This document shows positions 9,669 through 24,477 of a stretch of DNA of 56,363 nt, in pieces. The DNA is from Sandaracinaceae bacterium (GTDB lineage Bacteria > Myxococcota_A > Polyangia > Polyangiales > Sandaracinaceae): positions 58,100 to 114,462 of the forward strand of contig JBGAQA010000010.1 in assembly GCA_044220955.1 (NCBI GenBank), given 5' to 3'. The translations under genes and the position numbers were made by a program. Below the pieces are notes generated by a model. The model was given only the letters and a program-made list of their open reading frames with translations, was not told the DNA's origin and made no database searches. Every line of letters begins with the position of its first letter. The stretch's first letter is position 1.

Positions 9669-10733
9669 CTACTGCTCGCGACGGGCGATACGCCTGGCGA
9701 GCGACGCGAGCAACGCGCGGCCGCGCGGATCGACCGGCGCCGCGTCGAGCGCGTCCAGCGACGCGCGCAGGAGCGCCTCGAGCCGGGTCTCGACGCGGCC
9801 GCGGACGCCCGTGCGTTCCAGCATCTGCATGGCCTCGCGGATCGCGGCTTCCCCTGCGTCTGCGCGGCCGAGGACGCGCGACAGAGGGGCGCGGTCCGCT
9901 TCGGAGAGGCTCGTCTCGGCCTCCCGGACGATCGCCGTGCGCTTGCCGGCCCGCAGGTCGTTGCCCACGGGCTTGCCGGTGAGGGCCGCGTCGCCGAAGG
10001 TGCCGAGCAGATCGTCGCGCACCTGGAACGCCTCGCCGATCGGGACGCCGAAGCGGGCGAGCCCCTCGAGCTGCGCCGCCGTCGCGCCCGCGAGCGTCGC
10101 GCCGAGCGCGAGCGGTCCGTCGACCGTGTAGCTGCCCGTCTTGAGCTGCTGCATCCGCGTCACGTCGGCCGACCCGCGCAGGTCGAGCGCCTGCCCGGCC
10201 ACCACGTCGCGCTGCATGCGCGAGAACACCGCGAGCACCGCGGGCGGGCTCGGCGCGCGCGCCGCGCTCTCGAGCACGAGGTCCCACGCGTACGCGTTGC
10301 CGAGGTCGCCCGCCAGGATCGCGAGCGCGTCGCCGAGGTGCTCCTGACCGACGTCGGCCCGGAGCATCACGTGCACCGAGGGCCCGCCGCGCCGCTCGAG
10401 GTCGCCGTCCATCCAGTCGTCGTGGATCAACAGGTACGACTGCAGCACCTCGAGCGCCGCGCACGCGGCCACGACTTCCGCGAGGCGCGCGTCCGGCCGG
10501 ATCGCGCGCTGGGCCGCCACCATCACCGCGGGGCGTAAGCGCTTGGCCCCGCCGCGCATCGTCAGGTCCTCGAGCCGGGCCACGAGCAGCTCCGCCTCCG
10601 GCGCGCTCGTGCGGAGCTCGGCGCGCCGTGCCGCGAAGAAGGCCGCGAGGTGCGCGTCCGTGGCGTCCCGCACCTCGAGGACGAAGTCCCTCTCGCTCTT
10701 CCCGCTCGCGCCGTCGGCAGGCGTCGTCATCAT
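9669..10733 (-). CDS. Short-chain polyprenyl diphosphate synthase (FPP/GGPP synthase), ~354 aa
   Basis: GGAKRLRP, FARM YLLIHDDWMDGDLERRG (Tyr five residues before DDxxD, indicating short chain), KTGSY, SARM FQVRDDLL; start overlaps the ERG2 stop (TGATG). Confidence 0.9.
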   Translation of the reverse strand: MMTTPADGASGKSERDFVLEVRDATDAHLAAFFAARRAELRTSAPEAELLVARLEDLTMRGGAKRLRPAVMVAAQRAIRPDARLAEVVAACAALEVLQSYLLIHDDWMDGDLERRGGPSVHVMLRADVGQEHLGDALAILAGDLGNAYAWDLVLESAARAPSPPAVLAVFSRMQRDVVAGQALDLRGSADVTRMQQLKTGSYTVDGPLALGATLAGATAAQLEGLARFGVPIGEAFQVRDDLLGTFGDAALTGKPVGNDLRAGKRTAIVREAETSLSEADRAPLSRVLGRADAGEAAIREAMQMLERTGVRGRVETRLEALLRASLDALDAAPVDPRGRALLASLARRIARREQ

Positions 10734-11290
10734 CAGATCTTGCCTCGCATGAGGTTCCCGACCACGGCCTGCCCGTACATGCGGAACGTCTTGGCGACGC
10801 TGCGCGCATCGAGCGTGCTCGTGAAGGAGTCGGCGAGGCCGAAGGGCAGCATCGTCGGGATGATCCCCCGCGCGTACTCGAGCGCGTGGCACTGGCCCGG
10901 CATGCGATAGCCCTTGGCCGTGCCCTGTGGCAGCACGTGCATGTCGCCGGGCTTGTAGACGCTGCGCTGGAGCTGGCCCTCGGCGTAGGCCCACTGCTCG
11001 CCCTCGAGGATGAAGAAGTAGTCCGTCGCGAAGAAGCGCCCGGTGTGCCCCTCCGTGCCGATCGGCGTGCCGAAGATCATCAGGTACTCGGTGATCGACG
11101 AGTGGAGCAACATGAAGTGCCCCATCGCGCCGCCCGCGACGTTGAGCACCCACTCGGGCTTCTCCACGATGTAGTCGCGGTACTCGCCGCGCAGGTCGGC
11201 GTGGATCTCCTCGACCACCAGCTCGATCGGCTGGCCGATGCGGCGCTTCACGATGCGGTGCAGGACCTCGGGATCGAGAACGTGGGACAC
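10733..11290 (-). CDS. ERG2/sigma-1-receptor family C-8 sterol isomerase (no N-terminal TM anchor)
   Basis: WVLNVAGGAMG, LHSSITEYLMIFGTPIGTEGHTG, ALEYARGIIPTMLPFGLAD are hallmark ERG2-family segments. Confidence 0.9.
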   Translation of the reverse strand: MSHVLDPEVLHRIVKRRIGQPIELVVEEIHADLRGEYRDYIVEKPEWVLNVAGGAMGHFMLLHSSITEYLMIFGTPIGTEGHTGRFFATDYFFILEGEQWAYAEGQLQRSVYKPGDMHVLPQGTAKGYRMPGQCHALEYARGIIPTMLPFGLADSFTSTLDARSVAKTFRMYGQAVVGNLMRGKI

Positions 11291-23383: not shown

Positions 23384-24477
23384 GCTCGTCCCCGCAGATC
23401 GATGACGCGCACGTCGCGCAGCCCCGCGATCGTCGTCACGCCGGTGCAGAAGCAGATCACCCGGAGCTCGTAGAGGATCGCGTCGAGCGCGCGCGCCACC
23501 GCCTCTTCGCTCTCGTGCGCGGGCCCGAGCAGGGGCGCCGCGAGCGCCACCGCGTCGGCCCCCAGCGCGAGCGCGACGGCCACGTCCATGCCGGTGCGGA
23601 TCCCGCCGGACGCGATCACCGCGCGCTCGCGGAACACCGCACGCACGGTCCGGAGCGAGTCGGCGGTCGGCACACCGAACCCCGCGAGCCTGCGCCCGAC
23701 CTCGGCGTGGACGCTCTCGTCGGCGGCGCGGTGGGCCTCCACGTGCGCCCACGACGTGCCGCCGACGCCGGCGACCTCGACGCCGGCGAGCCCGATCCCG
23801 GCGAGCTTCTTGGCCGTGCGCTCCGAGATCCCGGAGCCGACCTCCTTCGCGAGGACGGGGAAGGGCAGCGCGCGGACCACGTCGCGCATGCGCTCGACGA
23901 GCCCCGAGAAGCGTGTGTCGCCCTCGGGCTGGATCGCCTCCTGCAGCGGATTGAGGTGGAAGAAGAGCGCGTCGGCCGAGACCGCGCGGATCATCGCCTC
24001 GAGGTCCGCGCGGGTGACGCCGTAGTTGAGCTGCACGGCGCCGACGTTGCCGACGAGCAGCGGGAGCGAGGGCGCCACGCGTCGCACCGCGAACGTCGGC
24101 GCCAGCTCCGGCCGCAGCAGCATCGCGCGCTGGGAGCCGAGCGCCATGCCGATGCCCGCCCTCCCGGCGGCGCGCGCGAGGCGGGCGTTGACACCCTCGG
24201 ACCGCTCCGAGCCACCGGTCATGGCGCCCACGATCAGCGGCGCCGCGAGCCGCTTTCCGAGCAGCGTCGTCGCGAGATCGACGTCGGCGAGGTCGACCTC
24301 GGGCAGCGCGTCGTACTCGAGCGTGTACCGCCCGAGACCCAGGGCGGGGCCGCGCGAGCCCACGTCCCGAGAGAGCACGACGTCGAGGTGGTGGTCCTTG
24401 CGAGACGACACGATCGCGCCCTCGCGCTCTCGCGCGCGCGTGCCGCTCGTTCCCAGGACTCCCACCTCGTCCGTCAT
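23380..24477 (-). CDS. fni: Type 2 (FMN-dependent) isopentenyl-diphosphate delta-isomerase, ~365 aa
   Basis: RKDHH, GAMTGG, GSQR, HLNPLQE..QPEGD, KEVGSG, GGTSW, ASGGIR; GGGAG RBS before ATG 24477. Confidence 0.93.
   Translation of the reverse strand: MTDEVGVLGTSGTRAREREGAIVSSRKDHHLDVVLSRDVGSRGPALGLGRYTLEYDALPEVDLADVDLATTLLGKRLAAPLIVGAMTGGSERSEGVNARLARAAGRAGIGMALGSQRAMLLRPELAPTFAVRRVAPSLPLLVGNVGAVQLNYGVTRADLEAMIRAVSADALFFHLNPLQEAIQPEGDTRFSGLVERMRDVVRALPFPVLAKEVGSGISERTAKKLAGIGLAGVEVAGVGGTSWAHVEAHRAADESVHAEVGRRLAGFGVPTADSLRTVRAVFRERAVIASGGIRTGMDVAVALALGADAVALAAPLLGPAHESEEAVARALDAILYELRVICFCTGVTTIAGLRDVRVIDLRGRA

Follow-up and report, generated by a model that had tools for sequence, protein, structure and literature searches.

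A probable sterol biosynthesis operon built of conserved enzyme fusions in an uncultured Sandaracinaceae bacterium, collinear with the cluster of Sandaracinus amylolyticus

Bacterial C-4 demethylation of sterols is reportedly carried out by a protein pair, SdmA and SdmB, which is said to have been described by Lee et al. in 2018. Here, we analyze eight genes that probably form a sterol biosynthesis operon of an uncultured Sandaracinaceae bacterium and that lie at positions 9669–24477 of a 56,363-nt stretch of DNA (contig JBGAQA010000010.1, positions 58,100 to 114,462; the whole stretch is referred to as the window). The closest described system is that of Sandaracinus amylolyticus. According to passages of Lee & Welander (2025, J Bacteriol, PMC12004948), this organism makes cholesterol and lathosterol, performs C-4 demethylation via SdmAB, and possesses a homologue of geranylgeranyl reductase (GGR), named Bsr, which is a C-24 sterol reductase acting on zymosterol and desmosterol. 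The SdmA/SdmB pair was tested further in PMC10202945, a passage of which states that the SdmB of Calothrix alone makes lanosterone. Fusions of a squalene epoxidase (SE) with an oxidosqualene cyclase (OSC), which the initial annotation of the window had noted as already reported in bacteria, are indeed in print: they include MsbE (2020, PMC7074536), described in that paper as bifunctional by sequence, and “fused SMO/OSC homologs” in a passage of Brown et al. (2023, PMC10070321). As stated in a passage of Wei et al. (2016, PMC4919349), Val453 of the cyclase tracks lanosterol production.

Gene content and collinearity with Sandaracinus amylolyticus

Judged by gene content and order, the cluster is orthologous and collinear to the published S. 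amylolyticus sterol cluster and is thus a further example of a known pathway. Its eight genes are co-oriented on the minus strand and fill 9669–24477 exactly, as determined from a frame plot of the G+C content at codon position 3 (GC3), the list of open reading frames (ORFs), and start-site inspection (Table 1). From 5′ to 3′ they are fni (type 2 isopentenyl-diphosphate isomerase, IDI), HMGR::SDR (HMG-CoA reductase fused to a short-chain dehydrogenase/reductase), a GGR-family gene, SE1::OSC, ERG4/24, SE2::MID::SQS (a second epoxidase domain, a cyclase-derived middle domain, and squalene synthase), ERG2, and a prenyl diphosphate synthase gene. The first two genes overlap by 4 nt (ATGA), the following gaps measure 43, 13, 15, 175, and 15 nt, and ERG2 overlaps the prenyl synthase gene by 1 nt. 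The GC3 of the eight genes is 0.89–0.96; the start of fni, which encodes an FMN_dh (Pfam) protein scoring 349.9 bits with TIGR02151 (cut-off 281.3), was set by the GC3 plot and the ATGA overlap. The initial annotation had described eight tightly spaced or overlapping co-oriented genes at this position, and the GC3 plot and ORF list bear this out. The enzyme domains that it named were confirmed by Pfam, with scores above the gathering threshold for all except a “barrel”, and by NCBIfam; the barrel was recovered by a structure model and profile comparison. Its labels needed refinement at four points, with the SDR being SdmB-like, the GGR-like reductase corresponding to Bsr, the barrel (MID) resembling a degenerate half-cyclase, and the FPP synthase being a predicted short-chain prenyl diphosphate synthase.

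The genome G028 was taken as S. amylolyticus because one of its proteins matches P0017, a protein that NCBI assigns to this species, with 100% identity over 1143 aa. Its cluster comprises fni, HMGR::SDR, SdmA, GGR, SE1::OSC, ERG24, SE2::MID::SQS, a CYP51-ferredoxin, and ERG2. When the window domains were searched by tblastn, the genes shared by both organisms (fni, HMGR::SdmB-like, Bsr, SE1::OSC, ERG24, SE2::MID::SQS, and ERG2) were found in the same order and on the same strand, with domain identities of 48–69% and all three fusions in place. Three differences were observed: G028 has sdmA between the SDR and bsr and a cyp51-ferredoxin gene between SQS and erg2, both absent from the window cluster, whereas the window has an additional prenyl diphosphate synthase gene after erg2. 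The initial annotation's view of a heavily fused precursor-to-sterol cluster is supported by the domains and by this collinearity, and the genome is a myxobacterial one. The initial annotation had also held that the end product could not be read from canonical pathways, a point that is not supported, since the organism with the collinear cluster makes cholesterol and lathosterol and the function of its Bsr has been shown. G028 was recovered by a genome search within the family; the closest locus, L027, has the exact gene order of the window at 80–96% identity.

The fusions are conserved far beyond this pair of organisms. A scan of species-representative genomes gave 339 confirmed stretches, and all locus counts rest on 80 of these, on which 14 domain queries from the window were placed before the reading frames were checked. 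HMGR and SDR adjoin each other in 16 loci and form one ORF in 15 of these, whereas in L057 they are separated by a stop and the SDR is decayed. A single ORF likewise encodes SE1 and OSC in 19 of 19 loci, and SE2–MID as well as MID–SQS in 30 of 31. All three fusions co-occur in 15 of the 16 scanned loci with all eight domains (not in L057), and additionally in G028 and the window. The three-fusion layout, which had been considered possibly novel, is therefore a recurrent one. SE2::MID::SQS has 204 full-length relatives at E ≤ 1e-3, including S. amylolyticus P0017 (57%) and Cystobacter fuscus P0041 (50%), and was found in 31 of 32 Sandaracinaceae genomes, compared to 29 for ERG4/24, 28 for CYP51, and 17 for ERG2 (these tallies include the unpublished genome G029, without which each changes by at most one). 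HMGR::SDR has 792 relatives at E ≤ 1e-20, among them S. amylolyticus P0150, which is annotated only as “HMG-CoA reductase, degradative”.

The window belongs to contig C11 of a 7.5-Mb metagenome-assembled genome (MAG; G000) with 301 contigs and a completeness of 87.9%. Near-identical DNA occurs in activated sludge, sludge, or bioreactor sequencing runs from 8 studies (11 rows with at least half of the sampled words); no RNA run was among the runs holding the stretch. A scan for promoters and terminators gave 0 promoter-like sites and 3 terminator-like sites versus 2.8 expected.

Table 1 Coordinates of the cluster genes, their domains, flanking genes, and related genes on other contigs of the same genome
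Feature	Position	Strand	Remarks
3-oxoacid CoA-transferase subunits A and B	4839-6196	+	~3.5 kb from cluster end
PEGA-repeat protein	7294-9561	-	755 aa, six PEGA repeats; flank, 107 nt downstream of last cluster gene
Prenyl diphosphate synthase (predicted short-chain)	9669-10733	-	354 aa, last gene
ERG2 gene	10733-11290	-	185 aa
SE2::MID::SQS	11306-14743	-	1145 aa
Squalene synthase domain	11324-12370	-	residues ~792-1140
MID, cyclase-derived alpha/alpha barrel	12464-13315	-	residues ~477-760
SE2, squalene epoxidase domain	13394-14743	-	residues 1-450 of 1145-aa gene, all cofactor motifs intact
ERG4/24 gene	14919-15995	-	358 aa
SE1::OSC	16011-19472	-	1153 aa
OSC domain, lanosterol-synthase type	16080-17990	-	residues 495-1131 of 1153-aa gene
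SE1, squalene-epoxidase-like domain fused to cyclase	18249-19472	-	DG-motif Asp->Thr (GATGRG)
GGR-family gene (predicted Bsr)	19486-20643	-	385 aa
HMGR::SDR	20687-23383	-	898 aa
SdmB-like extended SDR domain	20786-21781	-	residues 535-866 of 898-aa gene, ~130-aa linker to HMGR
Class II HMG-CoA reductase domain	22178-23317	-	residues 23-402 of 898-aa gene
fni, type 2 isopentenyl-diphosphate isomerase	23380-24477	-	365 aa, first gene
GMC oxidoreductase	24587-26818	+	flank, divergent from fni
CYP51 + C-terminal ferredoxin domain (Fer4_15), CYP51fx	C166:61891-63639 (L003:1063-2811)	-	outside window
KshA-like Rieske oxygenase (Rieske + KshA_C)	C231:28090-29481 (L126:6091-7482)	-	adjoins aldehyde dehydrogenase
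Second ERG2/sigma-1-type gene	C279:1107-1652 (L125)		237-240 bits

Fused epoxidase, cyclase, and squalene synthase domains

The two epoxidase-type domains of the window share 42% identity, and human SQLE is the nearest solved structure for each. SE2 (PF08491, 65.8 bits; human SQLE, 81.4 bits) carries the motifs GGGPVG, GADGRAS, and GDAVGHVHP, corresponding to the GxGxxG, DG, and GD fingerprints of flavoprotein monooxygenases. Among 60 SE2 sequences, the acid of the DG motif is kept in all (D in 56, E in 4), as is the aspartate of the GD motif. SE1 (PF08491, 71.9 bits; best PDB match human SQLE 6c6n, 96.7 bits) keeps GAGPVG and LVGDAIG as its GxGxxG and GD motifs, whereas a Thr replaces the DG aspartate. 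This aspartate is retained in two of 21 SE1 domains, those of L086 and L088, both in loci without SE2, and is replaced in the remaining 19, all from loci that also have SE2; furthermore, the GD aspartate is lost in three and GxGxxG altered in four of the 21. All 21 SE1 domains form a single clade with a support of 1.0 in an unrooted tree. Cystobacter- and Polyangiales-type loci possess only SE2::MID::SQS plus a separate cyclase, and SE2 must therefore be able to act as an epoxidase. We infer that epoxidation is assigned to SE2 and not to SE1, whose activity as an epoxidase appears doubtful despite its SE-like fold.

Domain conservation was compared over 18 clusters with all eight domains (153 pairs, which are not independent). 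Mean pairwise identity was lowest for SE1 (49.5%), followed by MID (51.2%), SDR (60.1%), SE2 (61.8%), SQS (64.9%), OSC (66.6%), GGR (71.0%), and HMGR (71.4%).

The OSC domain (SQHop_cyclase_N and SQHop_cyclase_C in Pfam) reaches 494 bits with TIGR01787 (cut-off 322.7) and aligns to human OSC 1w6k with an E-value of 3e-128. SDCTAE is intact and, in human numbering, V453 is present together with A381 and H449, the latter two positions matching neither canonical triad. SE1::OSC shares with the printed SE::OSC fusions the N-terminal epoxidase, the C-terminal lanosterol-type cyclase, and the Val at the lanosterol-synthase position, but differs from them in the loss of the DG aspartate and in the presence of a second, intact epoxidase in the next-but-one gene. 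According to PMC7074536, MsbE has kept its flavin-binding residues.

MID, the part between SE2 and SQS, gave weak sequence matches (osq_cycl, E = 1.8e-10; PF13243, 20.7 bits) and was modeled as an alpha/alpha barrel with a predicted local distance difference test (pLDDT) score of 88 and a predicted template modeling (pTM) score of 0.80. Foldseek matched the model to human OSC 1w6j (E = 1.5e-5) and to 8pak/8paj, “squalene-hopene cyclases” of 345 aa. An hhalign comparison with the alignment of the clusters' OSC domains placed MID on OSC columns 322–652 of 662, i.e., the C-terminal half (probability 99.6%, E = 7.8e-25). The protonating Asp of class II terpene cyclases (DCTAE or DxDD) was not found in MID, in which the column of the DCTAE aspartate is non-conserved (Glu in the window), and no residue inside MID was invariant among 35 sequences. 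Judging from these comparisons, MID is a putative half-cyclase that derives from the C-terminal part of an oxidosqualene cyclase and is catalytically degenerate. The single-barrel cyclases 8pak/8paj (Cystobacter fuscus and Archangium gephyra, ~345 aa) resemble it in consisting of one barrel of the class II terpene-cyclase type (TM 0.53 normalized to target, 21–22% identity), but MID is internal between epoxidase and squalene synthase and lacks any conserved acidic residue for catalysis; no paper on these two structures was found in the full-text literature search. The length of MID varies, and it is absent from L054, L063, L064, L077, and L080, where the SE2–SQS linker is only 51–82 aa. A shorter middle part of ~260–280 aa was observed in L059, L061, L062, L065, L067, L074, L076, and others.

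The SQS domain exceeds its Pfam cut-off (PF00494, SQS_PSY, 138 bits). In its DTIED motif D835, E838, and D839 are invariant among 13 homologues, and in DVTDD the same applies to D998 and D1002, with D1001 being conserved in at least 90% of them. A model of the full-length SE2::MID::SQS protein (pLDDT 81.5, pTM 0.60) shows three folded domains with low-confidence linkers at residues 455–470 and 767–788, and at this pTM leaves the mutual domain arrangement unfixed.

C-4 demethylation, tailoring enzymes, and the predicted sterol

The HMGR domain exceeds its family cut-offs (PF00368, HMG-CoA_red, 322 bits; TIGR00532, 347 bits versus a cut-off of 259.95). The SDR fused to it belongs to Epimerase/3Beta_HSD in Pfam, and its best NCBIfam match is SdmB (NF052578), whose cut-off of 600 bits is reached by no genome of the family, followed by HpnA with 229 bits. 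It is the best SdmB-like match of the genome (289 bits versus 156 for the runner-up), and its motifs TGATGHLG and YARTK (GxxGxxG and YxxxK) are intact. Because sdmA directly adjoins the orthologous SDR in 22 of the 80 loci and in G028 (whose SdmA scores 415 bits with NF052579, the SdmA family, cut-off 600), we read the HMGR-fused SDR as a predicted SdmB-like C-4 demethylation reductase. It thus resembles the known SdmA/SdmB pair in its best family match and its gene neighborhood, but is fused to HMGR, scores under the family cut-off, and has no SdmA partner in the genome.

Neither the window nor the 87.9%-complete MAG yielded an SdmA at E ≤ 1e-30. The best SdmA-like match, obtained by profile search and by tblastn with the G028 SdmA, was a KshA-like Rieske protein on contig C231 (72.6 bits, 24% identity). 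At the same threshold, SdmA is present in 18 of 32 family genomes; within the genus of the window, which is represented by six genomes including G000, it occurs only in G024, where sdmA (428 bits) lies beside the cluster, and was not found in the congeners G020, G021, G022, and G023 (81–90% complete). The spacing between SDR and bsr is 43–158 nt in the window, L027, L029, L030, and L031, and sdmA is therefore truly deleted from its usual place in these loci. Hence, judging from the available genomes, this lineage has apparently lost sdmA. In L049 and L057, which are also without sdmA, the HMGR-fused SDR is strongly decayed (34–35% identity over a partial match, with a stop in L057), and this would fit a loss of SdmB function after SdmA loss; the SDR motifs of the window are intact. 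On the 7.5-kb contig C79, a Rieske + DUF5914 protein (L127:3181-4203:+), for which no NCBIfam match was found at 1e-5, is convergent with a 3-beta-HSD-family SDR (160 bits; L127:4210-5463:-). The 3′ ends of the two genes are 6 nt apart, a cNMP-binding protein adjoins them, and they could represent another sterol-modifying oxygenase/dehydrogenase pair.

Aligned over all of its 385 aa, the GGR-family protein (FAD_binding_3 in Pfam) is 68% identical to the GGR homologue at the syntenic position in G028, and has the motifs YYGWLFP (YxWxFP) and KTCGSG with the active-site Cys, as cited in PMC12004948; we regard it as Bsr, a predicted C-24 sterol reductase. The ERG4/24 protein (PF01222, ERG4_ERG24, 252 bits) is predicted to be an ERG24-type delta-14 sterol reductase, its best PDB match being the delta(14)-sterol reductase 4quv (E = 3e-64), with no DHCR7 or ERG4 structure ranked in the structure search. 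A second ERG4/24, which would be a DHCR7 candidate, was not found in the MAG, compared to two such genes in G028. The ERG2-type sterol C-8 isomerase scores 243 bits with PF04622 (ERG2_Sigma1R). A second ERG2/sigma-1-type gene of the MAG has no sterol genes nearby, and G024 likewise has two ERG2 genes. The sterol methyltransferase model PF08498 had no match in the MAG, and its control likewise gave none in any genome.

The last gene of the cluster had been labeled FPP synthase. Its assignment holds at the family level (PF00348, polyprenyl_synt, 155 bits), while all NCBIfam matches are below their cut-offs (the best being polyprenyl transferase with 194 bits and mycobacterial FPP/GPP synthase with 185 bits); we predict a short-chain prenyl diphosphate synthase, probably a farnesyl diphosphate (FPP) synthase. 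A Tyr occupies position −5 of its DDWMD motif, to which a chain-length rule would apply. The CYP51-ferredoxin of the MAG (CYP51fx) is encoded on another contig among unrelated genes (aspartate-semialdehyde dehydrogenase and ribosomal protein L13), without sterol neighbors. Among PDB entries it is closest to the CYP51fx of M. capsulatus (6mcw, E = 3e-146), and it is 76% identical to the CYP51-ferredoxin of G028; such a gene lies inside the sterol cluster in 14 of the 80 loci. A diphosphomevalonate decarboxylase on contig C118 and the lack of any Dxr match in the MAG speak for precursor supply via the mevalonate route; the prokaryotic HMG-CoA synthase model gave weak matches only.

In the proposed flow, class II HMGR, type 2 IDI, and the prenyl synthase would raise precursor supply, with the rest of the mevalonate route being encoded elsewhere. 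The SQS domain would make squalene, which SE2 on the same polypeptide would convert to 2,3-oxidosqualene, and the OSC domain with its V453 would cyclize this to lanosterol. The CYP51-ferredoxin from the other contig would then remove the 14-methyl group, the ERG24-type reductase would saturate delta-14, ERG2 would shift delta-8 to delta-7, and Bsr would saturate the side chain at C-24. Because sdmA appears to have been lost and no second ERG4/24 was found, the product is likely a delta-7/delta-8 sterol demethylated at C-14 and saturated at C-24. It may retain the methyl groups at C-4 and would not be cholesterol; this is the weakest part of the proposal.

Other explanations differ widely in their probability. 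Spurious long ORFs are frequent at the 72% G+C of the window, with 42 ORFs of at least 150 aa overlapping the cluster region, so that the fused ORFs could in principle be assembly or gene-calling artefacts created by frameshifts or read-through stops; we regard the chance of this as negligible. GC3 is at least 0.9 in a single frame across every junction, the same fusions recur in 15–30 independent loci from other assemblies and in complete genomes, and the region is covered by contigs from four other studies, none of which shows a frame-breaking indel where the domains join. Among the differences listed between these contigs and the window only two are indels (an in-frame one of 3 nt at 10717 and one of 15 nt at 14911, within the ERG24–SE2 spacer), and the junction-spanning pieces have no gaps (X2 record 14, 16653–22538; X2 record 11, 11740–14995; X3 record 23, 21288–22540). 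It is similarly very improbable that the cyclase acts on squalene and that the cluster makes a non-sterol triterpenoid of the hopanoid or tetrahymanol type. In its favor, a hopene cyclase model matches the cyclase with 269 bits and the SDR has HpnA as its second-best match. Against it, the cyclase scores 726 bits with the OSC-specific model, has human lanosterol synthase as its nearest solved relative, contains DCTAE, and is accompanied by the sterol-only enzymes ERG24, ERG2, Bsr, and CYP51. A better case can be made for SE1 as a still working epoxidase, which might be redundant with SE2 or specialized, for example in feeding the cyclase directly or in making 2,3;22,23-dioxidosqualene. This is supported by its intact GAGPVG and LVGDAIG motifs, by a match to human SQLE that is stronger than that of SE2, and by the DG aspartate of L086 and L088, which, in loci without SE2, indicates that the SE::OSC architecture began bifunctional; MsbE is likewise described as bifunctional by sequence in PMC7074536. 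The replaced or altered motifs described above speak against it. In 151 of 153 genome pairs (not independent of each other) SE1 is also the less conserved domain of the two, and across one set of 17 genomes it has 58 invariant columns, compared to 109 in SE2; we consider an active SE1 possible but rather doubtful.

The organism might also make cholesterol like S. amylolyticus, with sdmA, a DHCR7-type reductase, and a C-5 desaturase located in the unassembled 12% of the genome or among unclassified genes, which appears unlikely on balance. The fragmentation of the MAG into 301 contigs, the sdmA gene beside the cluster of the congener G024, the intact motifs of the SdmB-like domain, and 13 unclassified ORFs of the FA_hydroxylase family would all be compatible with this explanation. 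However, SdmA was missed in G000, G020, G021, G022, and G023, and chance alone would hardly produce five independent misses; the short SDR–GGR gap speaks for deletion of sdmA in the window and in L027, L029, L030, and L031; and only one ERG4/24 was found. Several observations also weigh against the explanation that we favor. Four assignments fall below the family cut-offs, namely SdmB (286 bits versus 600), osq_cycl (TIGR03463, 726 versus 851), squal_synth (TIGR01559, 103.5 versus 286.75), and GG-red-SF for Bsr (146 versus 158.8). The missing part of the MAG could contain sdmA or a DHCR7-type gene, and a C-4 oxidase or C-5 desaturase could be among the 13 FA_hydroxylase-family ORFs. An SdmB-like domain that keeps its motifs without a partner fits poorly with a simple loss of C-4 demethylation, and SE1 retains two of its three motifs and may therefore be active. 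The term “operon” relies on spacing and synteny, and the 175-nt spacer 5′ of the SE2 gene could contain an internal promoter. We infer co-transcription, and likewise every catalytic step in this organism, from sequence.

Evolution, novelty, and neighboring genes

One tentative scenario, to which we give a rather low probability, derives the two large genes from a duplicated bifunctional epoxidase::cyclase that decayed in opposite directions. One copy would have kept the cyclase and be losing the epoxidase (SE1::OSC), while the other would have kept the epoxidase, shrunk the cyclase to a dead half-barrel, and captured a squalene synthase (SE2::MID::SQS). The dead domains might be retained to dock the two polypeptides or to anchor them at the membrane, and a channel from FPP via squalene and oxidosqualene to lanosterol would result. 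In the same scenario, the loss of sdmA in this genus would have left the HMGR-fused SdmB domain as an orphan with a changed role, which could be C-3 oxidoreduction; such a role is conceivable because Calothrix SdmB alone makes lanosterone (stated in a passage of PMC10202945). It is speculative that SE1 and MID persist as pseudo-enzyme domains left over from the reciprocal decay of a duplicated SE::cyclase gene.

A full-text literature search, with figures and most subscription journals outside its scope, found no description of an SE::cyclase-like::SQS or HMGR::SdmB fusion. Neither fusion is described in the passages retrieved from PMC12004948, PMC10202945, PMC4919349, PMC8237579, PMC10152446, and PMC7947880, and the words “fusion” and “fused” occur neither in the main texts of the first three nor in the supplement text of PMC12004948, figures excepted (Fig. 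2a of PMC12004948 may show the fusions). The SE::half-cyclase::SQS and HMGR::SdmB fusions and the sdmA loss in this lineage thus seem to be undescribed in text. The remaining novelty is modest and consists of these two fusions, the degenerate epoxidase with the half-cyclase, and the sdmA-less lineage.

Among the candidate sources of sterol synthesis in eukaryotes are the sterol pathways of myxobacteria, and sterane biomarkers are harder to interpret because bacteria make sterols as well. At the pathway level, the window adds nothing new. Together with the 80 related loci, it indicates that the Sandaracinaceae cluster is built of conserved natural fusions, in which an epoxidase domain and a domain derived from a cyclase have the appearance of retained pseudo-enzymes. 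The set of tailoring genes kept in the cluster (sdmA, cyp51, erg24, and erg2) varies among lineages, and different sterol end products are therefore predicted for closely related bacteria of wastewater habitats. These fusions may also serve as ready-made constructs for tests of substrate channeling in sterol synthesis and for engineering. Further isoprenoid and sterol fusion proteins were encountered in the search for HMGR::SDR relatives (P0162, P0171–P0178, P0183–P0195, and P0208–P0240). Myxococcota MAGs contain larger fusions, of ~1550 aa (SQS + prenyl synthase + HMGR + SDR) and ~1250 aa (SQS + HMGR + SDR), and many HMGR + prenyl synthase fusions of ~790 aa.

Eukaryotic contamination or recent horizontal transfer of the region was rejected, as the G+C content is even along the window (0.69–0.76) and the flanking PEGA-repeat gene is syntenic in L027–L031, where the encoded proteins are 68–88% identical. 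The remainder of the window consists of housekeeping genes. The 3-oxoacid CoA-transferase on the same side as the PEGA-repeat gene could provide acetoacetyl-CoA, although its linkage to the cluster is purely hypothetical. On the other side, a short stretch at the C-terminus of the GMC oxidoreductase matches cholesterol oxidase ChoxAB (66.9 bits, far under the cut-off), and the GC3 signal suggests that the true start of the oxidoreductase gene is near 24750–24900. This gene was not found beside the G028 cluster, but occurs at the same position in L029 and L030 with 81% identity.

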